This document shows positions 4,346-64,000 of a DNA stretch of 64,000 bases, in pieces. Location: contig CAZUAT010000002.1 in NCBI GenBank assembly GCA_964618415.1, positions 47,758 to 111,757 on the forward strand, in the 5' to 3' direction. Numbering within the stretch: position 1 is the first letter of the stretch; each line of letters starts with the position of its first letter. The DNA comes from an uncultured Thermoanaerobaculia bacterium (GTDB lineage: Bacteria; Acidobacteriota; Thermoanaerobaculia; Multivoradales; JAGPDF01). The position numbers and the translations under genes are program-made. The notes beneath the pieces are model-generated. The model was not told the origin of the DNA. It saw nothing but the letters and a program-made list of their open reading frames with translations, and searched no databases.

Positions 4346-5553
4346 GTCGCGGCGCGGCCGCCTCGTTCCCGCTCTACCTGGCGTGGCGCTACCTGCGCAG
4401 CACGCGGCGCGACGCGTTCACCAGCTTCCTGTCGGCGGTCGCGGCGGGCGGCATCGGCCTCGGCGTGGCCGCGCTGGTGCTCGCGCTCGGCGCCCTGGCC
4501 GGGATGCAGCAGGCGCTGCGCAGTGAGATCGTCGCGCGCACGCCCGGCCTCGCGGTGACGCTGCCGCACGACGCCGATGCGCTGGCCGTCGCCGACCGGC
4601 TGGAGCGTGCTGCCGGCGTGACCGGCGTGCAGCGGATCCTGCCCGGCCGCGGCTGGCTGTTGACCTCCGGGCGGACGCAGCCCGTCGAACTGGTCGGCTT
4701 TTCGGGCGCCCTGCCGCCGTCGTTTCCCAACCCGTCGGGGTCGCAGCCCGGGCTCTACCTCGCCGACGTCGACGCCACCCGATTCGGACTCGTGCCCGGC
4801 GACATCGTCACCCTGGCGGCGCCGCGGCCGACCCTCACGCCGCTGGGGCCGCAGCCGCGGCTGCTCTCGGTGCGCCTCGAGGGGACGTTCGAGGCGGCGC
4901 CATCGGGCGACGAGGCGCGCGCCGCGCTGCCGCTCGAACGCGCCGAGATCCTGCTCGGAGCCGACCGGCCGGTGCGTCTCGAAGTGGCGGTGGACGACCT
5001 GGAGGCGGCTCCCGCGCTTGCCGCCGCGTGGCGCGAGGAACTGCCGGCGGGCACGCGCATCGAGACCTGGCGCGACCTCAACCGACCGTTGTTCTTTGCC
5101 CTCGCGCTGGAGCGCACCGTGCTGTTCCTGGCCGTCTCGCTGATTGTCGCGGTGGCGGCGGTGGCGCTGTTCTCGGATCTCCAGCTGGTCGCCTCGACCA
5201 AGCGGCGGGAGCTGGTGGTGCTGGGCGCGCTCGGTGCCGGTCCGGCTCAGCTGCGGCGGATGTTTCTGCTGCTCGGTGGCATGCTCGGCGCCCTGGGGGC
5301 CGTGGCAGGCGGGCTGGTCGGCTGGGTCGCCGCGGTCGTCTGTGACCGGTTCGAGCTGCTACGTGTGCCGACCGGCCTGTTGCTGTTCGATGCCCTTCCG
5401 TTCCGGGTGCGGCCGCACGATGTGGTTGCGGTCGTGCTCATGACCCTGGCGCTCACCTTCGCCTGTTCGGCGCTCGGCGCCCGGCGGGCGGCGGAGGTGG
5501 CGAGCGGAGAGGGCGATTCGCGCGGCGGGGGCCCGGGGAGCCTGCGCGCGTGA
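4342..5553 (+). CDS. Lipoprotein-releasing ABC permease, LolC/LolE (FtsX) family. Only a single copy is present.
   Basis: A GTG start overlaps the lysS stop. Translation begins FPLYLAWRYLRSTRRDAFTSFLS, which is the conserved LolC/E N-terminus. It has 4 TM helices and a large periplasmic loop. Confidence 0.8.
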
Positions 5554-6233
5554 GTGTCGCGGTTGCGGCCCGCGGGCTGGTCAAGTCGTACCGCGACGCG
5601 GCGCGCGAGGTGCCGGTGTTGTGCGGCGTCGACCTGGACCTGGCGCCGGGCGAGCTGGCAGCCGTGGTCGGGCCGTCGGGATCGGGCAAGTCGACCCTGC
5701 TGCATCTGCTCGGCGGGCTCGATCGACCGGACGCCGGCACGGTCGAGGTGGGAGGCCGCCGGATCGACACCCTGGCCGCCGACGACCTCGCCGCCTTTCG
5801 CAATCGCACCGTCGGATTCGTCTTTCAGTTCCATCAGCTGCTGGCCGACTTCACGGCGCTCGAGAACGTCGCCCTGCCGGGGCGCATCGCCGGTCTGGCG
5901 CCGCGCGAGCTGGCCGAGCGCGCCGAGGCGCTGCTCGCCGAGGTCGGCCTGGCCGAACGCGTCGACCACTTCCCGAGTCAGCTGTCGGGCGGGGAGCAGC
6001 AGCGGGTGGCGATCTGCCGCGCGCTGCTGCTCGAGCCGCCGCTGGTTCTGGCCGACGAGCCGACCGGCAATCTCGACGCCGCTGCCGGGGAGCAGGTCTT
6101 CGCGCTGCTGCAGGAGATGGTCGCCCGCCACGGGACCACAGCGCTGGTGGTCACCCACAACCGCGAGCTGGCGGCCCGGTGTGCTAGGCTTCTGACCTTG
6201 GAAGAGGGGCGGCTGCGCGTCGGAAGTGCCTGA
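5550..6233 (+). CDS. lolD: Lipoprotein-releasing system ATP-binding protein LolD
   Basis: It has Walker A GPSGSGKST, the signature LSGGEQQRVAICRAL and Walker B LVLADEPTGNLD. It overlaps the permease stop by 4 bp. Confidence 0.85.
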   Translation: MSVAVAARGLVKSYRDAAREVPVLCGVDLDLAPGELAAVVGPSGSGKSTLLHLLGGLDRPDAGTVEVGGRRIDTLAADDLAAFRNRTVGFVFQFHQLLADFTALENVALPGRIAGLAPRELAERAEALLAEVGLAERVDHFPSQLSGGEQQRVAICRALLLEPPLVLADEPTGNLDAAAGEQVFALLQEMVARHGTTALVVTHNRELAARCARLLTLEEGRLRVGSA

Positions 6234-6274
6234 GCTAGCTCGACTTCCGAGCCTGCTGCGACGACGGAGGCGAG

Positions 6275-8701
<2,427 letters not shown>

Positions 8702-8773
8702 GCCCGCACCCGGCCGGAGACACGCCCGGGAGGCCCGTGCGGGGCCCTCGGTATTCCGTTTGCAGCGTTTTTC
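8702..8773 (+). terminator. Putative intrinsic terminator downstream of clpC
   Basis: An inverted repeat GCCCGCAC...GTGCGGGGC is followed by a T-tract (..GCGTTTTT) in the 99-bp clpC-bamA spacer. Confidence 0.3.
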
Positions 8774-8800
8774 GGGGATGATCTTCCGCCCGACGGACTC

Positions 8801-11176
8801 ATGCGCGCCGCCAAGACGATCTTTCTGACCCTCGCCCTGACGCTTTTCCCGGCGCTCGCCTCCGCCGAGACGATCCGGGCCATCGAGTTCCGCGGCCTGC
8901 GTTCGGTGGCCGAGGAGACGCTGCGCTTCTACCTCGGCCTCGAGGAAGGGCGCGAGCTCGACGAGGCCGCCCTCAACCGGAACATCCTCGACTTGTGGAG
9001 TCGGCGGCTGCTCGACGACATCCGGGTCGAGAAGGAGCCGGCAGGGGACGGCGTCAAGCTCGTCGTAACGGTCGTCGAGCGGCCGATCCTGCGGTCACTC
9101 GACTTCAAGGGGCTCAAGCGCCTCTCGCGCACCGACATCAACGACCGGATGGCCAAGGAGCAGATCGACGTGCGCGAACGCGATCCGCTCGACATCGGCG
9201 AGATCCGACGCCTCGAGGTGGCCATCGAGGAGATGTACCGCGAGAAGGGCTTCCGGTTCGCCGACGCCACGTGGACGATGGAGGAGTCGGCTCCCGGCGA
9301 GCGCCGGGTGCTGTTCGCCATCGACGAGGCCGAAAAGGTCCGCATCGGGAAAATTGGCTTCGATGGCAACAAGGTCCACGGCGACCTGCGCCTGCGCTGG
9401 ACGATGAAGAAGACCAAGGAGACCAACCTCGTCTGGCGGATGTTCAAGAAGGACCTCTACAACGCCGCGACCGTGGAAGAGGACCTGGGCCTGGTGCGTG
9501 ACCTCTACCGCGCCGGCGGCTACAAGGACATCGAGCTGGGTGATCCGGAGCTGTCGGTCATCAACCGCCGCGGCAAGCGCCGGCTGGCGATCGACATCCC
9601 GGTCGACGAGCACGAGCGATGGAAACTGGGCAAGATCTCGACCGAAGGCAACCAGGTGTTCGCCACGGAGGCTCTGCTGCGCCGGTTCGAGAAGCCGCGC
9701 GGCGGCTGGCTGCGCTCGAAGGTGCTCGACAAGGGCGTCGAGGCGATCAACGAGACCTACCGCAACTACGGCCACATCTTCGCCCGCATCACGCCGGAGA
9801 TCGTCGAGGCGGGCGATCTGGTGGCCGACCTCGTCGTGCGCATCGAGGAGGGGGATCAGTATCGGGTCGGGCGCCTCGAGTTCGAGGGCAACACACGAAC
9901 GCGCGACAAGGTCCTGCGGCGCGAGTTTCGGGTGCACGAGGGCACGCTTCTGAACATGGGTGCCATCAAGAGCAGCCTGTTCAAGGTCAATCAGCTCGGT
10001 TACTTCAAGCTCGACGAAGACGAGCCGATCTCCTTCGAGAACTTCGACAGCGAGAAGAAGACGGTCGACCTCGTGCTGCACGGCCAGGAATCGGACCGCA
10101 CCGAGGTGCAGGTGGGCGGCGGCTACAGCGAGGGGTACGGCTGGTTCGGCCAGCTCTCGCTGCGCACCCAGAACTTCCTCGGGCGCGGCGAGTCGGTGGG
10201 CGTCTCGTTCCAGTCCGGCCGCTACGCCGACGAGTTCGACATCTCCTACTTCATCCCCTGGTTCCTGGATCGCCCGCAGTCGGTCGGCCTGCAGGTTTTC
10301 GACACCAAGCTCGACTACAGCGACATCTTCAACTTCGAGAACGCCCGCGAGAGCAGCGGCGCGGTGGCGACCTACGGGCGCAGTTTCCGCCTGTTCAACA
10401 GCTTTTCGACCAGCTTCACCCGCTCGGAGCTGTCCGGCACCACCACGATTCGCAACGCCCTCGGCGAGCTGGTGCCGATCGAGACCGACCTGTCGAACTC
10501 CTCGCTGCGGTTCGCCTACCGCTACGAGAGCCGCGACAGCCGTTTCGAGCCCACGGTCGGGACCGCGCTTTCTACCTCCCTCGAGTACGCCGGCGGATTC
10601 CTGGGTGGCGACAACTACTTCGTCCGGCCGGAGGTCGGGCTGAGCTGGTTCCGTCCGCTGGTGGAGAGCGGCAAGGTGCGGCCGCTGATTGCGTTCAATA
10701 TCGAGGGCGGGTTTGCCGATCCGTTCGGAGGGCGCGAGCTCGACTACTTCGAGCGCTACTTCCTGGGTGGCGAGAACAGCGTCCGCGGGTTCAACTACCG
10801 GTCGATCAGCGTGCGGTGTGAGGGCGGAGAGCCGATTCCGATCCGGCCCGAGGATCCCGTCTGCCACCGGGACGAGATCTACCCCGACGAGTTCGGACGC
10901 TCGCGCGGCGGCGACAAGTACGCCCAGTTCAATCTGGAGCTCCACCTCCTGCTGGGTGGCCCCTTCCGAGTGCTGGCGTTCTACGACGCCGCCAACGTCT
11001 TCGGTGACGACCAGTCGATCGACCTCGGGCGCCTGCGTTCGTCCGCCGGGATCGAGCTGCGCGTCTTCGTGCCGGTGTTCGGTGCTCCGCTGCGGTTCAT
11101 CTACGCGACCAACCTGGACGAGCTGCCGCTCGATCGTTTCGAGTCGTTCCAGTTCAGCATCGGCTCGACCTTCTGA
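8801..11176 (+). CDS. bamA: Outer membrane protein assembly factor BamA (Omp85; POTRA repeats plus a C-terminal beta-barrel)
   Basis: It spans 791 aa and has a signal peptide. POTRA-like repeats are present (IRAIEFRGLRSV, ILRSLDFKGL, KIGKIGFDGNKV, KLGKISTEGN, RVGRLEFEGN). A C-terminal bacterial surface antigen barrel ends in an aromatic residue (..FSIGSTF). Confidence 0.9.
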   Translation: MRAAKTIFLTLALTLFPALASAETIRAIEFRGLRSVAEETLRFYLGLEEGRELDEAALNRNILDLWSRRLLDDIRVEKEPAGDGVKLVVTVVERPILRSLDFKGLKRLSRTDINDRMAKEQIDVRERDPLDIGEIRRLEVAIEEMYREKGFRFADATWTMEESAPGERRVLFAIDEAEKVRIGKIGFDGNKVHGDLRLRWTMKKTKETNLVWRMFKKDLYNAATVEEDLGLVRDLYRAGGYKDIELGDPELSVINRRGKRRLAIDIPVDEHERWKLGKISTEGNQVFATEALLRRFEKPRGGWLRSKVLDKGVEAINETYRNYGHIFARITPEIVEAGDLVADLVVRIEEGDQYRVGRLEFEGNTRTRDKVLRREFRVHEGTLLNMGAIKSSLFKVNQLGYFKLDEDEPISFENFDSEKKTVDLVLHGQESDRTEVQVGGGYSEGYGWFGQLSLRTQNFLGRGESVGVSFQSGRYADEFDISYFIPWFLDRPQSVGLQVFDTKLDYSDIFNFENARESSGAVATYGRSFRLFNSFSTSFTRSELSGTTTIRNALGELVPIETDLSNSSLRFAYRYESRDSRFEPTVGTALSTSLEYAGGFLGGDNYFVRPEVGLSWFRPLVESGKVRPLIAFNIEGGFADPFGGRELDYFERYFLGGENSVRGFNYRSISVRCEGGEPIPIRPEDPVCHRDEIYPDEFGRSRGGDKYAQFNLELHLLLGGPFRVLAFYDAANVFGDDQSIDLGRLRSSAGIELRVFVPVFGAPLRFIYATNLDELPLDRFESFQFSIGSTF

Positions 11177-18146: not shown

Positions 18147-18223
18147 GCGGCTGTAGCTCAGCTGGATAGAGCAGGAGCGTCCTAAGCTCTTGGTCGGGGG
18201 TTCGACTCCTCCCAGCCGCACCA
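18147..18223 (+). tRNA. tRNA-Arg (anticodon CCU)
   Basis: It is 77 nt long. The acceptor stem pairs GCGGCTG with CAGCCGC. The T-arm reads GGGGG-TTCGACT-CCTCC. The anticodon stem pairs GGAGC with GCTCT, with loop GTCCTAA. The CCA end is encoded. Confidence 0.75.
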
Positions 18224-43225: not shown

Positions 43226-43301
43226 GCGGGCATAACTCAGTTGGTAGAGTGTCAGCTTCCCAAGCTGAATGTCGCGGGTTCGAATCCCGTTGCCCGCTCC
43301 A
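43226..43301 (+). tRNA. tRNA-Gly (anticodon CCC)
   Basis: It is 76 nt long. The acceptor stem pairs GCGGGCA with TGCCCGC. The anticodon stem pairs TCAGC with GCTGA, with loop TTCCCAA. The T-loop reads GGTTCGAATCC. The CCA end is encoded. Confidence 0.8.
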
Positions 43302-48167: not shown

Positions 48168-49064
48168 ATGCTCAAGAAGCTGTTCGGCAAGGGTGAAGCT
48201 CGCGCGCCCGAACGCGCACGCGAGCCCGAGCTGTCGATCGACGATCTGATCGTGCTCGAGCGGTGGGACGAGGCGATCGCCCACCTCGAGGCGCGGGTCA
48301 AAGCCCATCCGCGCGACCTCCACGCGCAGCTCAAGCTCGCCGATGCCCTCGTCAAGGTGCGCAAGCCGCAGCGCGCCCTCGACCAGTATCTGCTGGTCGT
48401 CGACTCCTACGCCGAGGATGGCTTCTTCGACCGGGCGATCGCGCTGCTCAACAAGATCGGTCGCCTGGCGCCAGCCGACGAGCAGATCGCTGCGCGGCAC
48501 AAACGCCTGCAGCGGCTCAAGGAGCTCGAGCACAGCCGGGTAATGGCGATCGAGGGGCTGATGGCCGGGCAGGCGGACCAGGGCCCGCTGGCACGCCTGT
48601 CGCCGATCGAGGCGCAGCAGATCTGGCAGAGCGTGGCGAGTTCGGACCTGGTGCGCCGGCTGCCCGGCGAGCAGCTGCGCCGCCTGTTCCTGGGCGCTGG
48701 CCTGGCGATCTGGGAGGCCAACGAGATCGTCGCCGAGCGGGGCAGCGGTATCGAGCGGATGTTCCTGGTCGTCAAGGGGCAGGTCGAGGCGATCCTGGCG
48801 CTGCCGGACGGCAAACTGACTCAGCTGCGGGTGCTCTCGACCGGGGACCTGTTCGGCGAGCGGGCGCTGCTCGAGCACAAGCCGTGGCCGGCGACTTTCC
48901 GGGTCCTGGAGCGGACGCGGCTGCTGCGCATCGACAAGCAGGGCCTGGAGAAGGCGCTGGCCGGCAACCCCGACCCGCGGCAGTTGCTGGAGGCGCTGCG
49001 CTCGCAGCGCCACGATCGCGAGGTGGCGGCGGCCGTCGAGAAGCTGCTAGTTTCTCCCGCCTGA
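48168..49064 (+). CDS. TPR-like N-terminal domain plus a cyclic-nucleotide-binding (CAP effector) domain protein
   Basis: The N-terminus is helical TPR-like (HLEARVKAHPRDLHAQLKLADAL, DQYLLVVDSYAEDGFFDRAIALL). The C-terminal cNMP-binding fold reads ERGSGIERMFLVVKGQVE...LSTGDLFGERALL. Its stop overlaps the def start in an ATGA overlap. Confidence 0.7.
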   Translation: MLKKLFGKGEARAPERAREPELSIDDLIVLERWDEAIAHLEARVKAHPRDLHAQLKLADALVKVRKPQRALDQYLLVVDSYAEDGFFDRAIALLNKIGRLAPADEQIAARHKRLQRLKELEHSRVMAIEGLMAGQADQGPLARLSPIEAQQIWQSVASSDLVRRLPGEQLRRLFLGAGLAIWEANEIVAERGSGIERMFLVVKGQVEAILALPDGKLTQLRVLSTGDLFGERALLEHKPWPATFRVLERTRLLRIDKQGLEKALAGNPDPRQLLEALRSQRHDREVAAAVEKLLVSPA

Positions 49065-49582
49065 TGGCGGTCCTGCCGATCCTGCTCTACCCCGACCCGG
49101 TCCTGCGGCGCGTCGCCCGCGAGGTCGACCGGTTCGACGACCGCCTGCGCGCCCTGGTTGCCGATATGGCGGCGACCATGTACGACGCACCAGGGATCGG
49201 GCTGGCGGCGCCGCAGGTCGGGGTGGAGGAGCGCGTGGCGGTGGTCGACGTCGGCTCCGGGACGCCCGACTCGCAGCTCCTGGTCCTGGTCAACCCTCGT
49301 CTGGCCGCCCAGTCGGGCAGCCAGCCGAGCGAGGAAGGCTGCCTCTCGATCCCCGGTCTCACCGAAACCATCGAGCGCCCGGCGCGGGTGACCGTCGCCG
49401 CCCTCGACGCCGACGGACGTGCCTTCGAGGTAGCCGCAGAAGGGCTGCTGGCGCGCGCCCTCTGCCACGAGATCGACCATCTCGACGGCATCCTGTTCGT
49501 GGATCGCCTGACCGGCCTGCGCAAGGAGTCGGCGCGGCGCAAGCTGCGCCGTTTGCCCTACGTGCGCGAAGCGGCCAGCTAG
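49064..49582 (+). CDS. def: Peptide deformylase
   Basis: The motifs GIGLAAPQVG, EGCLSIPG and HEIDHLDG are all present. Confidence 0.9.
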   Translation: MAVLPILLYPDPVLRRVAREVDRFDDRLRALVADMAATMYDAPGIGLAAPQVGVEERVAVVDVGSGTPDSQLLVLVNPRLAAQSGSQPSEEGCLSIPGLTETIERPARVTVAALDADGRAFEVAAEGLLARALCHEIDHLDGILFVDRLTGLRKESARRKLRRLPYVREAAS

Positions 49583-51540: not shown

Positions 51541-51615
51541 GCGGGAATAGCTCAGTGGTAGAGCACAACCTTGCCAAGGTTGGGGTCGCGGGTTCAAGTC
51601 CCGTTTCCCGCTCCA
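51541..51615 (+). tRNA. tRNA-Gly (anticodon GCC)
   Basis: It is 75 nt long. The cloverleaf is GCGGGAA / D-arm GCTC-AGTGGTA-GAGC / anticodon loop TTGCCAA / T-arm GCGGG-TTCAAGT-CCCGT / TTCCCGC-T-CCA. Confidence 0.9.
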
Positions 51616-51628
51616 GTTTTCGATCCTG

Positions 51629-51668
51629 CCGGGGGTCGTTCGAGCGATCGGACGGCCCCCGTTTTCGT
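51629..51668 (+). terminator. Hairpin plus T-tract between tRNA-Gly and tRNA-Cys, a terminator-like or processing structure
   Basis: CCGGGGGTCG...CGACGGCCCCCG forms an imperfect stem and is followed by TTTTCG. Confidence 0.3.
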
Positions 51669-51708
51669 AGGGCCGGGTCGATGCGGCCCGGTCAGGATGC
51701 CTCCCCGG

Positions 51709-51783
51709 GGCGACGTAGCCAAGTGGTAAGGCAAGGGTCTGCAAAACCCTCATTCGCCGGTTCGATTCCGGCCGTCGCCTCCA
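51709..51783 (+). tRNA. tRNA-Cys (anticodon GCA)
   Basis: It is 75 nt long. The acceptor stem pairs GGCGACG with CGTCGCC. The anticodon stem pairs AGGGT with ACCCT, with loop CTGCAAA. The T-arm reads GCCGG-TTCGATT-CCGGC. The discriminator is U, followed by CCA. Confidence 0.85.
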
Positions 51784-51800
51784 GCCTTTCCCTCCCTCCC

Positions 51801-51886
51801 GCCGGAGTGGCGAAATGGCAGCCGCAGGAGGCTTAAACCCTCCGGCCCGCAAGGGCGTGCAGGTTCGAATCCTGCCTCCGGCACCA
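51801..51886 (+). tRNA. tRNA-Leu (anticodon UAA), type II with a long variable arm
   Basis: It is 86 nt long. The acceptor stem pairs GCCGGAG with CTCCGGC. The anticodon stem pairs GGAGG with CCTCC, with loop CTTAAAC. The variable arm is GGCCCGCAAGGGCGT. The T-arm reads GCAGG-TTCGAAT-CCTGC. The CCA end is encoded. Confidence 0.85.
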
Positions 51887-57783: not shown

Positions 57784-59139
57784 ATGAGCCGGACGCTGCA
57801 CGTCTGCCAGGCCTGCGGGCACCAGTCGCTCAAGTGGCTGGGGCGCTGCCCGGAGTGTGGCGCCTGGTCGAGCTTCGTCGAGGAGGTGCGCGACACGCCG
57901 CGCCGCGCAGCGGCGTCGAAAGGCGGCGGCGCGACGCTGGTGGCCCTGTCGGAGGTCGAGCAGGAGGCGGTGGTGCGGGCGCCGTCCGGGCTGGCGCAGC
58001 TCGACCGGGTGCTGGGCGGCGGAGTGGTCGAAGGCGGGGCGGTGCTGCTCGCCGGCGAGCCGGGGATCGGCAAGTCGACCCTGCTGCTGCAGGTGGCCGA
58101 ACGGCTGGCGGCCGGCGGGCGCACGGTCGTCTACGCGAGCGCGGAGGAGTCGCCGCGCCAGCTGCGGCTGCGCGCCGAGCGACTCGGGGCCGTCTCGCCG
58201 GCGGTGCAGGTGGCGGGCGAGACCCGACTCGAGCCGCTGCTGGCGGCGCTCGCCGAGGCGGCGCCGGGGGCGGTACTGGTCGATTCGATCCAGGCGCTGC
58301 GCAGCGACGAGCTGGAGTCGCCGCCGGGCGCGATCGGGCAGGTGCGCCACTGCGCGCATCGGTTGGTGGAGTTCGCCAAGCGCAGCGGCGCGGCGCTCTT
58401 TCTGGTCGGCCACGTGACCAAGGAGGGGACGATCGCCGGCCCGAAGTCGCTCGAGCACCTGGTCGACACGGTGCTGTCGTTCGAAGGGGAACGCGAGTCG
58501 GAGTACCGGATTCTGCGCGCCTCGAAGAACCGCTTCGGCGCCACCGGTGAGCTGGCGATGTTCGAGATGCGCGAGAGCGGCCTGGTGCCGGTGCCCGACC
58601 CGTCCCGGGTCCTGCTGGCGCGGCGCCGCGAGGGTGCGCCCGGCTCGGCGGTGCTGCCCACGCTCTCCGGTTCGCGTCCGCTGCTGGTCGAGGTGCAGGC
58701 GCTGGTTTCACCGACCAGCTTTCCGTCCCCGCGCCGCATGGCGGTCGGCCTGGACGCCAACCGGGTGGTGCTGCTGGTGGCGGTGCTCGAGCGCTTCGCG
58801 CGGCTCGGGCTGGCCGACCGCGACGTCTTCCTCAATGTGGTCGGCGGCCTGACGATCAAGGAGCCGGCAGCCGACCTCGCGGTCGCCGCGGCGCTGATCT
58901 CGGCCACCCGCGGCGTCGTCCTGCCGCCCGACGCCGTCTACTTCGGCGAAGTCGGCCTGCTCGGCGAGATCCGCCCCGTCGGCGGCGCCGACGCCCGCCT
59001 GCGCGAAGCCACCGCCCACGGCTTCCGCCGCGCCGTCATGACCCGCACCGAAGGCCTCCAGCCCCGCGAAGGCCTCACGCGCGTCGAAGTCGCCACCCTG
59101 GAGGACCTGGCCGCCCAGATCGCTCCTGCGGACAGGTAG
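57784..59139 (+). CDS. radA: DNA repair protein RadA/Sms
   Basis: The N-terminal Zn ribbon is CQACGHQSLKWLGRCPECGAWSS. The RecA-like Walker A is GEPGIGKST. The motif KNRFG is present. It has a C-terminal Lon-protease-like domain. Confidence 0.95.
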   Translation: MSRTLHVCQACGHQSLKWLGRCPECGAWSSFVEEVRDTPRRAAASKGGGATLVALSEVEQEAVVRAPSGLAQLDRVLGGGVVEGGAVLLAGEPGIGKSTLLLQVAERLAAGGRTVVYASAEESPRQLRLRAERLGAVSPAVQVAGETRLEPLLAALAEAAPGAVLVDSIQALRSDELESPPGAIGQVRHCAHRLVEFAKRSGAALFLVGHVTKEGTIAGPKSLEHLVDTVLSFEGERESEYRILRASKNRFGATGELAMFEMRESGLVPVPDPSRVLLARRREGAPGSAVLPTLSGSRPLLVEVQALVSPTSFPSPRRMAVGLDANRVVLLVAVLERFARLGLADRDVFLNVVGGLTIKEPAADLAVAAALISATRGVVLPPDAVYFGEVGLLGEIRPVGGADARLREATAHGFRRAVMTRTEGLQPREGLTRVEVATLEDLAAQIAPADR

Positions 59140-59252
59140 TTGGAGGCAAAGACAAGAAGCTCTCTAGAAGGGAAAGACAAAGAGCCGCAGCGCCGCAGGC
59201 GGCACCGGACGGGGAGCGAGGGGGTCTCAGGTTGGCCGGCCAGCGGCCTGCC

Positions 59253-60023
59253 TCAGCGGCGGGTGCCGGGCCAGATGAGGTCGGGGGGTGGGTCGGCGGG
59301 GCGGCCGAAGACGTAGCCTTGGGCGAACTCGACGTCGAGGGCGATGACTGCGTCGAGTTCGCTCTCGGTCTCGACTCCCTCGGCGATCACCTGGGCCTCC
59401 ATCCGGTGGCAGAGGTCGACGATCGACTGCAGCAGCTTGAACTGGCGGGTGCCCGGAGTGAGGCCGGCGATCAGCTCGCGGTCGAGCTTGACGATTTCCG
59501 GGTGCAGATCCGAGATGTACTTGAGATTCGAGAAGCCGGCGCCGAGGTCGTCGATGGCCAGCGCGATCCCCTTGCGGCGGATCTCGGCCAGCACCGAGTG
59601 ACACTGCGTGAAGTACTTGAGCGGCACCGACTCGGTGATCTCGAGCGTCACCGGCCACTTGTGGCGGAACATCGGATCGTCCGGGCGGACCAGCCAGCCG
59701 TAGTCGAACTCGTGCGGATGGATGTTCAGGAAGAGCGAGTAGCCGAGACAGTGCCGGACGGCCTGCTCACGGTGGATGCAGCCCAGTTCGGCGATGCGTC
59801 CCGCCTGGATCGCCACCTCGAACATCTCCGGAGTCGACGTGAAGATATCGGTGCGCGGCCGGGCCAGCGCCTCGTAGGCGTGCAGGCGGCGGCGCTTGAC
59901 GTCGGCGATCGGCTGGAAGGCGACGTCGACCGCTCCCTCGTCGACCGCGGCATGGATGGCCCGGACCTTTTCGGCCGAGTAGAGCGAGCCGCTCGATGCT
60001 GCCAGCGAGGGGGGGAGGCTCAC
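59253..60023 (-). CDS. Stand-alone EAL-domain protein, a putative c-di-GMP phosphodiesterase
   Basis: The motifs are EALAR, DDLGAGFSNL, KLDRELI and EGVETESEL. It is about 257 aa long. The GTG start overlaps the purC stop in a GTGA overlap. Confidence 0.75.
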   Translation of the reverse strand: MSLPPSLAASSGSLYSAEKVRAIHAAVDEGAVDVAFQPIADVKRRRLHAYEALARPRTDIFTSTPEMFEVAIQAGRIAELGCIHREQAVRHCLGYSLFLNIHPHEFDYGWLVRPDDPMFRHKWPVTLEITESVPLKYFTQCHSVLAEIRRKGIALAIDDLGAGFSNLKYISDLHPEIVKLDRELIAGLTPGTRQFKLLQSIVDLCHRMEAQVIAEGVETESELDAVIALDVEFAQGYVFGRPADPPPDLIWPGTRR

Positions 60024-60925
60024 AGATCCTCGGGCTTCCGTCCGGTCAGGCGCTCGAAAGCCGCCACGTAGCGGTCGCGTGTTCCCTGCACGACCTCGTC
60101 GGGCAGCGCCGGCGGGGCCGACTCGCGGTCCCAGCCGACCGAGTCCAGCCAGTTGCGGACGAACTGCTTGTCGAACGACACCGGTTCGGTCCCGGGCTGC
60201 CACGCGTCGGCCTCCCAGTAGCGCGACGAATCGGGCGTCAGCGCCTCGTCGATCAGCGTGATCTCGCCGTCGATCCAGCCGAACTCGAACTTCGTGTCGG
60301 CCAGCAGCAGACCGGCGGCGGCCGCCTGGGCGGCGCCAGCGGCGTAGAGCGCCAGGGTCAGGTCGCGCAGCCGGGTCGCCACCTCCACGCCCAGCTCGTC
60401 GGCTACCCGCGCGAACGTGACGTTCTCGTCGTGGCCGGACTCGGCCTTGGTGGCCGGCGTGAAGATCGGCACCGGCAGGCGGCTGGCCCGCTCGAGTCCT
60501 CCCGGCAGCGGCACGCCGCAGACGGCGCCGCCCTCGACGTATTCGCGATAACCGCTGCCGGCCAGGTAGCCGCGCGCCACGCACTCGAACGGGATCACCT
60601 TGGCCTTGCGGGCGAGCACCGCGCGGCCGCGCAGCAGGTCGGCGTGGCGGCGCACCTCCGGCGGCATGGCGTCGAGATCGGCGGTAACGAGGTGATTGCC
60701 CACCACGCTGGCGAGTCGCTCGAACCACCAGTTCGTCAGCTGGCTGAGGACCTTGCCCTTGCCCGGGATCGGGGGGCGCAGCACATGGTCGTAGGCCGAC
60801 AGGCGGTCCGTGGCGACGATCAGCAACTCATCGCCCAGATCGAAGACGTCGCGCACCTTGCCGCGCCTGGGCGCAGGCAGACCCGCCAGATCCAGTTCCC
60901 AGACCGCACCGGCTTGCGAACTCAT
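60020..60925 (-). CDS. purC: Phosphoribosylaminoimidazole-succinocarboxamide synthase (SAICAR synthetase), long form
   Basis: It spans 301 aa. The motifs are GKVRDVF, then ATDRLSAYD and then LLADTKFEFG. Confidence 0.9.
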   Translation of the reverse strand: MSSQAGAVWELDLAGLPAPRRGKVRDVFDLGDELLIVATDRLSAYDHVLRPPIPGKGKVLSQLTNWWFERLASVVGNHLVTADLDAMPPEVRRHADLLRGRAVLARKAKVIPFECVARGYLAGSGYREYVEGGAVCGVPLPGGLERASRLPVPIFTPATKAESGHDENVTFARVADELGVEVATRLRDLTLALYAAGAAQAAAAGLLLADTKFEFGWIDGEITLIDEALTPDSSRYWEADAWQPGTEPVSFDKQFVRNWLDSVGWDRESAPPALPDEVVQGTRDRYVAAFERLTGRKPEDL

Positions 60926-60943
60926 GTGCCTCCCGCGATGATG

Positions 60944-62941
60944 TCACGCTCCGAGCGTGGCCCGGAACTCCCTTTCGATCAGATCGACCAGATCGCCGCC
61001 GCGCAGTTCGAGCAGCGTGTGGTCCCCCCAGAGCCCGGCGTCGACGATCTCGTAGATCGGCGTGTTGTCGAGGCCCTTGAGCTGCGCCACCCCGAGCTTC
61101 CGGAAGCCGGCCAGCAGACTGTGGCCGGGCACCTCGAGCTTGACCGCGGTCCAGGTGCGATCGCCGTCGACCAGGCGGAAGACGCGGTCGAAAGCGCGCT
61201 CGCCGCTCAGCCGGGCGACCAGCTCGCCGGTCGCCACGATCCCCTCGTTGACCAGCGATCCGTTGGTGTTGATGTAGGCGAAGAAGCCGCGCTCCTGCTC
61301 CTGCTTGTCGACCACGTCGGCGTTGCGCTTGTACATCGGCGCGAAGAAGCGGTTGACCGTCGCCTCCGGGTAGCCGTTGATGATCAGCAGATTGCGGATC
61401 TCCTCGATGTCCCGGTGCCCCTTGCCCGTCGTCAGGCGGGTCAGTTCCACCACGCCGTGGCCGAAGAACTCGTAGCGCTCGGCTTCGGTTGCGACGCCGA
61501 TGCGGATCGGCAGCAGCCGGTACTGGCCGTGATTGAGCGCGATCCGCAGGCCCTTGCTGAACGGGAAGCCGCGCGTGAGTGCCTCGCGATAGGCGCGCTG
61601 GATCAGGATTGCCAGCCCGACCAGGTAGCGCGCCTCGCGACTCGAGTAGAAGGCGCCGTCGCCGAGGTACTTCTCGAGCTTCGCGCGGTGCTGGGTGGCG
61701 AGTCGGTTCACCTTGCGCTGGAAGCGGAACATCATCCGGAACGAGCGGTCCTGCTCGAGCGTGCCCGAGCGCCGGAGCATGGTCACCGTCTCGGTGAAGT
61801 CGGAGATGTCGTAGACCAGACCGAAGCGCGACACCACCGGGTCGACCACCCAGGGCGCCATGAAGTCGAGCGGCCGGGTGCTTCCCGACAGTCGCACCCA
61901 TTCGGCCTGTCCGCCAGCTCCGCGCGGCGATCGGGTCTGGCCCACCAGCGCGTCGCCCTGGCGCTCGCACAGCACGATCGAGCGGCGCATCGCCTGCAGC
62001 AGCTCGAACTCCTTGAGCTTGAGCAGCAGGTTCTCCCAGACGTGGACGAGCTGCGGCGACAGCAGCTGCTCGGAGTCCCAGCCGGCGCGCGAGGCGAGAA
62101 AGGTCACCATGCCGGGCCGGTTGAGGTGGGTTCGCGGGTCGTCGGTGCGCGGCAGACCGAGCACGCCTGCCAGGCGCGCCAGCTCCGGGTCGCTGCGCAG
62201 CTCGGTGGCATACCACTCGGTGAGCCGCAGCAGCCGGGTGCGGAAGTCGCGCCCGTCGAGCCGCAGGCAGCCGTTGAAGTAGCTCGACAGTTCCGCGAGG
62301 TTGGGGCTGACGTGCGTCTCGGAGAGGATCAGCACGTTGTCCCGCATGCGGGTGAACAGCGCCGGGAATAGCTGCTCTTCCTCCTCGTCGGTGTCGCTCG
62401 ACAGCCGCTGCGCCAGCTCGTAATTGAGATTGGTCAGCCGGTCGATCACCTTCTGCAGCACGCGGTACTTGAGCAGGTCGCCCCAGTCGCGCCCGGCGGT
62501 GGCGTCTCGGCGCAGGAAGCGCTTCGGCGTCTCGCGCAGCACCCGCGCCATGGTGCCGGAGTGCCAGAGCCAGAAGATCGCCGGGAAGCTGCGGCCGTAG
62601 CTGGCGGTCGTGACGTTCTCGGCCGCCCGCATCAGCAGCAGGCGGTAGCTCTCCCACGAGCCCTGAAAAGTGGGGGAGTCGAAGGAGCTGCGCTGCAGGA
62701 TGGCGAGCTCGACCTCCTCCTCCTGGATGACGTAGTGCTCGAATGCGCGCTCGAGCGCGTCGAGCTCGGGCGTCGTGAGCACCGGAAATCCGTGCAGCGG
62801 CGTTGCCGCCTCGTCCTCGAGGTAAATGCGGTGCAGGGGGGGCAGCGAACGTTCCGCATCCGGCAGGATTCGTCGGATCTCCTCGGGGTCCCGGAGCAGG
62901 AAGTTGAACGGACCGGTGAGGAGCTGGACGAACGGGACCAT
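60944..62941 (-). CDS. Hypothetical 665-aa protein with a C-terminal divergent class III nucleotidyl-cyclase-like (palm) domain and an N-terminal region of unknown function
   Basis: In the C-terminal half, VYDISDFTETVTML parallels the cyclase motif F-x-D-I-x-G-F-T. KYLGDGAFYSS parallels KTIGDAYM. GLRIALNHGQYRLLPI...YEFFGHGVVELTRL parallels GIHTGPVVAG...YDVWGDTVNLASR. Both metal-binding Asp positions are conserved. No TM or signal peptide is present. Confidence 0.5.
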   Translation of the reverse strand: MVPFVQLLTGPFNFLLRDPEEIRRILPDAERSLPPLHRIYLEDEAATPLHGFPVLTTPELDALERAFEHYVIQEEEVELAILQRSSFDSPTFQGSWESYRLLLMRAAENVTTASYGRSFPAIFWLWHSGTMARVLRETPKRFLRRDATAGRDWGDLLKYRVLQKVIDRLTNLNYELAQRLSSDTDEEEEQLFPALFTRMRDNVLILSETHVSPNLAELSSYFNGCLRLDGRDFRTRLLRLTEWYATELRSDPELARLAGVLGLPRTDDPRTHLNRPGMVTFLASRAGWDSEQLLSPQLVHVWENLLLKLKEFELLQAMRRSIVLCERQGDALVGQTRSPRGAGGQAEWVRLSGSTRPLDFMAPWVVDPVVSRFGLVYDISDFTETVTMLRRSGTLEQDRSFRMMFRFQRKVNRLATQHRAKLEKYLGDGAFYSSREARYLVGLAILIQRAYREALTRGFPFSKGLRIALNHGQYRLLPIRIGVATEAERYEFFGHGVVELTRLTTGKGHRDIEEIRNLLIINGYPEATVNRFFAPMYKRNADVVDKQEQERGFFAYINTNGSLVNEGIVATGELVARLSGERAFDRVFRLVDGDRTWTAVKLEVPGHSLLAGFRKLGVAQLKGLDNTPIYEIVDAGLWGDHTLLELRGGDLVDLIEREFRATLGA

Positions 62942-63135
62942 GAGGTCTCTGGAGTCTCGGGCGCGTACTCGGGTGCGGATGCCGCGTGGTGTCTGCGCGA
63001 CCTTATCGCATCCCGGGCGCCTGCGAACGCGCCGTGGACGCTCTCCGGCTGCGGCCCGGATCGGCCGAACGGATTGATAGACTCCCGTCCGCTCCGGACT
63101 CGGCCTGCCGCCGACCCGCGGCCCTTCGACCGGAC

Positions 63136-64000
63136 ATGCCGACCGCGCCAGCCCCGACCGCCGTTCCCGCCCCCGGTCCGCCCGGGACGCTCGCCTTGGA
63201 GGTCGACCTCGACGTCACCGTGCTCGTGCCAGTGCTCGACGAGGAGGGTTCGGTCGAGGAGCTCGCCGCGCGGGTGGCCGGCGTCCTCGACGGCCTCGGG
63301 CGCAGCTTCGAGATCATTTTCGTCGACGACGGTTCGCGCGACGCGACGGTTGAGCGGATCCGCGCCGCCCGGCAGCGCGACGACCGGGTGAAGCTGGTGC
63401 GGCTGCGGCGCAACTTCGGCAAGGCCGCGGCGCTCACCGCGGGGTTCGATCGTGCCCGCGGGCGCTGCGTGGTCACCATCGACGGCGACCTGCAGGACGA
63501 CCCGGACGAGATCCCGCGGCTGCTCGAGGGGGTCGAGTCGGGCAATCTCGACCTGGTCTCGGGGTGGAAGAAGGAGCGCCGCGACCCGCTGTCGAAGACG
63601 CTGCCTTCGCGGCTGTTCAACTGGGCAACCCGGCGGGTGGCGCAGGTCGATCTGCACGACTTCAACTGCGGTTTCAAGGCCTACCGTCGCGAGGTGCTCG
63701 AGCAGGTGCCGATCTACGGCGAGCTGCACCGCTACATCCCGGTTCTGGCGGCGCGGCGCGGTTTTCGGATCGGCGAACTGGCGGTGCGCCACCACCCGCG
63801 CCGCAGCGGCGTCTCCAAGTACGGCTGGGACCGCTTCTACAAGGGGCTGCTCGACCTGCTGACCGTGCTGTTCATCACCCGCTACACGCGCCGTCCGCTG
63901 CACCTGTTCGGGGCCTTCGGCATGGCGGCCTTCGCGGCTGGCTTCCTGATCGACGCCTGGCTGGCGTTCCTGTGGGCGTTTCGCGGCGAGTCGCTCTCCA
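63136..64000 (+). CDS. GT2-family polyprenol-phosphate glycosyltransferase (DPM1/ArnC/GtrB-like). It is partial, truncated at the window end.
   Basis: Translation begins MPTAPAPTAVPAPGPP. The GT-A motifs are VLVPVLDEEGS, IIFVDDGSRD, TIDGDLQDDP and an ED-like motif. C-terminal TM helices are starting (LLDLLTVLFI). It is absent from the ORF track because no stop lies within the window. Confidence 0.75.
   Translation, partial: MPTAPAPTAVPAPGPPGTLALEVDLDVTVLVPVLDEEGSVEELAARVAGVLDGLGRSFEIIFVDDGSRDATVERIRAARQRDDRVKLVRLRRNFGKAAALTAGFDRARGRCVVTIDGDLQDDPDEIPRLLEGVESGNLDLVSGWKKERRDPLSKTLPSRLFNWATRRVAQVDLHDFNCGFKAYRREVLEQVPIYGELHRYIPVLAARRGFRIGELAVRHHPRRSGVSKYGWDRFYKGLLDLLTVLFITRYTRRPLHLFGAFGMAAFAAGFLIDAWLAFLWAFRGESLS

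Follow-up and report, generated by a model that had tools for sequence, protein, structure and literature searches.

A 64,000-nucleotide stretch of DNA from an uncultured Thermoanaerobaculia bacterium (contig CAZUAT010000002.1, positions 47,758 to 111,757; the window below, with positions counted from its first letter) carries on its minus strand a gene for a 665-residue protein, followed by purC, for SAICAR synthetase, and by a gene for a stand-alone EAL protein. The C-terminal half of the 665-residue protein is predicted to have the catalytic fold of the class III adenylyl and guanylyl cyclases, and the gene stands directly upstream of purC in nearly all the loci of its subfamily that we compared. 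The explanation that we consider moderately probable is that of a divergent class III-type cyclase encoded in an old two-gene operon with an ordinary purC, to which the EAL gene was appended later, in a single sub-lineage.

Predicted fold and active site of the C-terminal domain

An AlphaFold2 model of the 665-residue protein, built from a 41-sequence alignment, has a mean predicted local distance difference test score (pLDDT) of 82.4. A Foldseek search of this model against the PDB returned 109 matches at E ≤ 1e-3, and the best 50 of the 109, with target template modelling (TM) scores of 0.65-0.81 and a probability of 1.00, are all class III adenylyl/guanylyl cyclase catalytic domains. The top matches include Cya2 of Synechocystis (2w01, E 1.5e-6), CyaB of Pseudomonas aeruginosa (3r5g), CyaC of Spirulina (1wc1), Ma1120 of Mycobacterium avium (4wpa, target TM 0.81), Rv1625c of M. 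tuberculosis (4p2f), a rhodopsin-guanylyl cyclase and soluble guanylyl cyclase. According to the model, the C-terminal domain (residues ~360-665, 60947..61864, minus strand) has the β-α-β-β-α-β palm fold of these enzymes, the same predicted fold as that of the PF00211 reference domains (including entries 4p2x for Rv1625c and 4wp9 for Ma1120). The GGDEF and CD-NTase readings of the domain were rejected, since all top Foldseek matches are class III cyclases.

The profile-profile comparison agrees with the model. The alignment by hhalign of 42 diverse family members with Rv1625c and mammalian adenylyl cyclase domains gave a probability of 68.7% and an E-value of 4.5e-5, in the same register as an earlier alignment of a shallow 12-sequence profile with mammalian adenylyl cyclase segments, for which the probability was 9.5%. 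In this alignment, for which the Rv1625c sequence was checked against PDB entry 4p2x, D378 and D428 correspond to the metal-binding aspartates D256 and D300 of Rv1625c, K424 to the substrate-specifying lysine K296, and R502 to R376, the transition-state and phosphate-binding arginine. The original prediction, made from the sequence alone, had described the C-terminal half as similar to class III cyclases, with both metal-binding aspartates retained, and this is borne out by the predicted structure, the fold search and the alignment. Two other positions are altered: E491 takes the place of D365, the second substrate-specifying residue, by a glutamate for aspartate exchange, and V498 that of N372, the transition-state asparagine that orients the ribose, which is lost.

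The arrangement that the 665-residue protein has in common with class III cyclases comprises the two metal-binding aspartates, the substrate lysine four residues before the second of them, the transition-state arginine, the strand arginine of the R-x-G/A-x-x-x-G motif, and the lysine of a C-terminal [LV]KG motif. The last of these is a motif reading only: the C-terminal stretch QLKGLDNTPIYEIV resembles the canonical [LV]KG...Y.[LV] hairpin with its phosphate-binding lysine, and K622 is matched in this way with K411 of Rv1625c, in a region where hhalign is not reliable. In contrast to class III cyclases, the second specificity residue is a glutamate and not the aspartate of adenylyl cyclases or the cysteine, serine or glycine of guanylyl cyclases, a helical insertion of ~45 residues (residues ~505-552) follows the arginine helix, ahead of the C-terminal LKG hairpin, and the domain is always fused to an all-alpha N-terminal domain of ~345 residues that has no structural relative.

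Invariance was scored across 42 clusters of the family whose pairwise identities do not exceed 50%. The 21 residues found to be invariant in 42/42 clusters (Y377, D378, E423, K424, G427, D428, G429, Y451, G464, R466, G494, E499, R502, L503, G506, K507, L563, N565, G617, K622 and G623) all lie in the C-terminal half, and they include most of the key residues of the domain (D378, K424, D428, R466, E491, V498, E499, R502, K507 and K622). Since the metal-binding aspartates, the substrate lysine, both arginines and the lysine of the KG motif are all invariant, the domain is predicted to be catalytically active. The substrate-specifying pair of class III cyclases is Lys/Asp for ATP and of Glu/Cys type for GTP. 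K424 favours a purine substrate, most likely ATP, to judge from the aligned residues, but a Lys/Glu pair with the asparagine missing does not define the specificity.

Several observations weigh against an active cyclase of ordinary type. Position 498 is Val in 35 clusters, Ile in 5, Ala in 1 and Leu in 1, so that the transition-state asparagine is absent throughout, and its loss strongly lowers activity in canonical cyclases. Position 491 is Glu in 38 clusters, Asp in 2 and Gln in 2, and the K424/E491 pair is non-canonical, which makes cyclic AMP as the product only a guess. Four invariant residues that are specific to the family (E423, E499, K507 and N565) have no assigned role. In addition, no sequence method sees the domain as PF00211, and its assignment comes from structure prediction and from a profile-profile comparison with a modest score. 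The same features, namely the lost asparagine at V498, the non-canonical pair, the lack of a PF00211 match, the large helical insertion and the additional invariant residues, would suit a pseudo-enzyme that binds nucleotide or dimerises without cyclising, and that acts as a nucleotide-sensing regulator or scaffold. However, pseudo-cyclase domains usually lose the metal-binding aspartates first, whereas here these residues, the substrate lysine, the transition-state arginine and both phosphate-binding basic residues are kept family-wide, and we regard a pseudo-enzyme as unlikely, although it deserves more weight than any of the other alternatives considered below.

Family extent and the N-terminal domain

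No match to the 665-residue protein was found in Pfam (E ≤ 1), NCBIfam or PADLOC, nor among PDB sequences, either by phmmer or with the 41-sequence profile, and 12 isolated C-terminal domains of the family, when searched against Pfam even at E ≤ 10, did not match PF00211 (Guanylate_cyc). Neither the window nor the 87 loci compared with it contain a canonical class III cyclase that could serve as a local reference, and a full-text literature search found nothing relevant.

The protein is conserved all the same. More than 997 homologues of about 665 residues were found, and for this reason we consider the open reading frames (ORFs) to be real genes and not artefacts of the high G+C content, which is ~70% in the window. 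Relatives were confirmed in 398 stretches of a collection of species-representative genomes, and the best 80 of these 398 all come from metagenome-assembled genomes (MAGs) of Thermoanaerobaculia, Acidobacteriota or Holophagales. The best homologues of the 665-residue protein likewise place the window in the Thermoanaerobaculia, Acidobacteriota, and every named record of the family belongs to Thermoanaerobaculia/Acidobacteriota. When 1.84 billion cluster representatives were searched exhaustively with a profile, 272 clusters were retrieved at E ≤ 1e-3, which is far below what canonical class III cyclases would give, and this indicates a small, isolated family.

Divergent cyclases are also known from defence: the pyrimidine cyclases of Pycsar (PycC) and other defence cyclases are divergent class III-like proteins with altered base-specifying residues, as is the case here, and the failure of Pfam to detect the domain would be in keeping with an anti-phage cyclic-nucleotide system, Pycsar- or CBASS-like, in which the cyclase is both sensor and generator. 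In contrast to such systems, the 665-residue protein has no PADLOC match and, in the loci examined at the level of gene calls, no effector gene beside it, its neighbours being purC, glycosyltransferases, peptidases and radA. The locus is of a housekeeping kind, vertically conserved and largely fixed across the relatives in the 398 stretches, unlike the patchy distribution of defence islands. The defence reading was rejected on the absence of a PADLOC match and on this housekeeping neighbourhood, and we consider it most improbable.

A sister subfamily of ~780 residues (proteins P0143 and P0271-P0389), also from Thermoanaerobaculia, shares the active-site motifs and is longer by ~130 C-terminal residues without a Pfam match. 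Its genes are adjacent neither to purC nor to an EAL gene. In the three sister loci L085-L087 (gene at 7001-9340) the constant flanks are a divergent Hda/IstB-like (Bac_DnaA) gene and a DinG-like helicase gene, and a thymidine kinase gene lies ~4-5 kb from the sister-subfamily gene.

The N-terminal domain (residues 1-345, 61907..62941, minus strand) was also modelled alone by AlphaFold2, which gave an all-alpha structure with a pLDDT of 87.5 and a predicted TM score (pTM) of 0.86. The original prediction had left the first ~330 residues unassigned, and they stay so here: the domain has no Pfam match, and in a Foldseek search against the PDB it matched no solved structure, the best E-value being 0.59, with TM below 0.25. 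No recognised signal or membrane domain was found in the 665-residue protein. Other architectures that use the N-terminal domain were not found either, since those matches of the exhaustive search that are odd in length lack Pfam domains and appear to be fragments. Across the 42 clusters not one residue of this domain is invariant. A variable N-terminal half and a constrained C-terminal half fit a regulatory module on a conserved catalytic core, and from the model the N-terminal domain is presumed to be a regulatory or sensor module.

The purC operon and the EAL gene

The three genes are closely packed, as originally described. The cyclase-like gene (60944..62941, minus strand, with its stop codon at 60944-60946) is separated from purC (60020..60925, minus strand, 301 residues) by an 18-bp spacer (60926..60943, minus strand; catcatcgcgggaggcac), in which a GGGAGG ribosome-binding site for purC can be read, and the GTG start of the EAL gene (59253..60023, minus strand, 256 residues) at 60023 overlaps the TGA of purC in the sequence GTGA, an overlap of 4 bp. 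At 55 bp past the EAL stop codon (59185..59198, minus strand) there is a terminator-like hairpin followed by a T-rich tail, where the transcription unit probably ends; it comes from a consensus scan that is weak, as chance alone would give 1.3 sites and 2 were found, and the same scan, as equally weak evidence, showed no terminator-like site between the three genes. Given the short spacer, the overlap and the lack of an internal terminator-like site, the cyclase-like gene, purC and the EAL gene are, as judged from the sequence, almost certainly co-transcribed.

The identification of purC in the original prediction was confirmed by Pfam (SAICAR_synt, 1.5e-68) and by the NCBIfam equivalogs, with 394 bits against a cutoff of 251 for the full-length NF010568 and 202 against 190 for TIGR00081. 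The equivalog match and the housekeeping neighbourhood indicate that it is probably an ordinary housekeeping SAICAR synthetase. In its equivalog match and its usual size it is like other housekeeping purC genes (NF010568/PRK13961 type), and it differs from them in context only, being almost always the second gene, behind the orphan cyclase-like gene.

In order to compare gene neighbourhoods, the window proteins were searched by tblastn against 80 related loci, and in 76 of them the sequence continues for at least 1 kb past the 3' end of the cyclase-like gene. Within the 665-residue subfamily 73 of these 76 loci have purC as the next gene downstream, on the same strand, with a median gap of ~33 bp, and one locus shows a 4-bp overlap of the two genes. 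The pairing is kept even where the identity of the cyclase-like protein is down to 48-55% and neither flank is the same any longer, with a Peptidase_M17 gene upstream in place of the GT2/GT4 glycosyltransferase genes, and S10 peptidase, PMT_2 or hypothetical genes downstream in place of radA; the GT2 neighbour was found in 28/87 loci only. The EAL gene has a different distribution: of the 24 loci at ≥65% identity 21 have it, and the ~50 loci at 48-55% identity all lack it. Thus, of the three-gene arrangement originally described, the cyclase-purC pairing is conserved in related genomes, whereas the EAL gene is not conserved beyond the close clade, to which it would have been added at the 3' end later, in one sub-lineage.

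The adjacency to purC is lost in three loci of the 665-residue subfamily (L025, L037 and L061), and these exceptions, together with the sister subfamily that lacks purC, show that the cyclase-like enzyme does not need purC next to it. In L061 a gene for a 650-residue caspase-domain (Peptidase_C14) protein (5051-7003, minus strand) is convergent with the cyclase-like gene. In two loci from long-read MAGs, L006 (10295-10848) and L011 (10031-10931), both without the EAL gene, purC is split into two tblastn segments, which suggests a frameshift due to an assembly error or a pseudogene.

The EAL protein was correctly identified as a stand-alone phosphodiesterase in the original prediction. Its only domain is Pfam EAL (1.4e-43, profile positions 3-236 of 236), and it aligns to the solved EAL domains of MorA (4rni, 6.4e-23) and also of BlrP1, YahA and RocR. 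The MorA alignment covers the ExxE, DDLGAG (DDxGxG), KLD (KxD), EGVE and QGY motifs, and EALAR (EALxR) and the asparagine of LNIHP can be read from the translation. To judge from these motifs it is a typical, motif-complete phosphodiesterase of cyclic diguanylate (c-di-GMP). It is full-length and motif-complete like other stand-alone EAL domains (Escherichia coli YahA/PdeL EAL, P. aeruginosa PA3825-EAL and MorA EAL, 4rni), from which it differs in having no sensor or partner domain and in standing behind purC in one sub-lineage only.

The original prediction proposed that the three genes could form a nucleotide second-messenger circuit. In such a circuit a messenger made by the cyclase-like protein would be tied to the purine intermediates succinylaminoimidazole carboxamide ribotide (SAICAR) and aminoimidazole carboxamide ribotide (AICAR) and would be degraded by the EAL protein. 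The co-transcription of the genes in the window, the recurrence of the three-gene order in 21 related loci and the strong conservation of the cyclase-purC adjacency speak for such a circuit. However, the EAL gene is absent from 3 of the 24 close loci and from all those at 48-55% identity, the sister subfamily is linked to neither purC nor EAL, and purC, which is not always adjacent even in the 665-residue subfamily, appears to be an ordinary one. The messengers would also differ. Class III cyclases make cyclic nucleoside monophosphates (cNMPs), and the folds matched are those of cNMP cyclases and not of GGDEF or CD-NTase proteins, whereas EAL domains are specific for c-di-GMP, which they hydrolyse, and this EAL is a typical member. 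The cyclase and the EAL protein would therefore not share a messenger, and the EAL protein most probably acts independently on c-di-GMP. We did not find the proposed circuit upheld by these comparisons and consider it quite improbable.

The tight adjacency of purC counts against the explanation that we favour, as it goes unexplained if the two products are unrelated. One alternative is that the palm domain carries out another nucleotidyl transfer linked to purine synthesis, for example with AICAR triphosphate (ZTP) or another nucleotide of the pathway as the substrate, or with a product that reports flux, which would account for the gene's staying in one operon with purC. The survival of the purC adjacency through the turnover of both flanks favours this, as do the altered K424/E491 pair, the absence of the ribose-orienting asparagine and the invariant E423, E499, K507 and N565. 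The ~780-residue sister subfamily, however, keeps the active-site signature without any linkage to purC, none of the loci examined at the level of gene calls has a further pur gene close by, an Rfam scan of 58900-63400 (E ≤ 1) found no purine or ZTP riboswitch and no other RNA element, and there is no direct evidence for such chemistry, which we judge rather unlikely. The broader proposal of a functional coupling between the cyclase-like enzyme and de novo purine synthesis, in that the enzyme uses or is controlled by a nucleotide of the pathway such as SAICAR, AICAR monophosphate (ZMP) or ZTP, or makes a cyclic nucleotide by which purine status is reported, seems doubtful to a similar degree. 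The operon with purC may reflect a real coupling of purine supply with cNMP signalling, or may simply be a stable inherited operon.

The unit is bounded downstream by the convergent radA (57784..59139, plus strand) and upstream by a divergent GT2 glycosyltransferase gene (plus strand, start at 63136). The 194-bp region between the latter and the cyclase-like gene contains a motif, TCTATCAA(T/C)C, that is kept in 13/13 aligned loci. In the window it lies at 63071-63081 (minus strand), and the opposite strand reads TTGATAGA, which resembles the -35 and -10 elements of a promoter. At 63000-63007 (minus strand), ~58 nt before the ATG, there is a second element, TA-rich (GATAAGGT / TGTAGGCT) and like an extended -10 element. 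In loci L012, L020 and L022 the first motif is only 5-8 nt before the ATG, which suggests, from its position, a leaderless transcript of the cyclase-like gene in these loci.

The wider neighbourhood consists of housekeeping genes (def, cysS, tRNAs, dnaB, alr, mlaF/mlaD and radA). An Rfam scan of the whole window found only 5 tRNAs, among them those at 18147-18220 and 43226-43298 (plus strand) and three clustered at 51541-51883 (plus strand), just upstream of dnaB. The ORF for peptide deformylase (48263-49582, plus strand) is listed with 439 residues, and its Pep_deformylase match covers residues 271-421 only; probably the listed GTG start is too far upstream, or an N-terminal extension is present.

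Proposed mechanism and significance

Returning to the divergent cyclase in an old operon with purC, the cyclase-like gene and purC would be the ancestral unit of the Thermoanaerobaculia, and the EAL gene would have joined its 3' end later, in the sub-lineage that includes this window, where all three genes would now be transcribed together. The catalytic domain would dimerise head-to-tail like other class III cyclases, with D378 and D428 binding two divalent metals, R466, R502 and K622 holding the triphosphate, and K424 and E491 reading the base, for which the lysine would favour ATP. The reaction would yield a 3',5'-cyclic purine nucleotide and pyrophosphate, and the N-terminal domain would control the activity in response to a signal.

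What is new here, as far as the models allow, is an unannotated but structurally recognisable class III-type family that joins a domain without a known structural relative to an altered active site, in a class-wide operon with purC. If it proves to be an ordinary cyclic AMP cyclase, the gain would be mainly one of annotation, in the form of a Pfam-type family and an N-terminal domain that are both new. If the doubtful coupling to purine synthesis were true, it would explain the class-wide operon, and the altered pocket (K424/E491, Val in place of the ribose-orienting Asn, and the invariant E499 and K507) could define a new class of product or substrate for the class III fold. An active 665-residue protein would represent a branch of the class III nucleotidyl cyclases that had no annotation before and that current family models miss entirely, and a natural case in which the ribose-orienting asparagine is replaced. 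Its gene appears to be near-core in the Thermoanaerobaculia, a widespread and hardly cultivated lineage of soils and sediments, and, if the enzyme is active, a cyclic-nucleotide pathway would be added to the physiology of the Acidobacteriota, and the lasting operon with purC would hint that cNMP signalling and the supply of purines influence each other.

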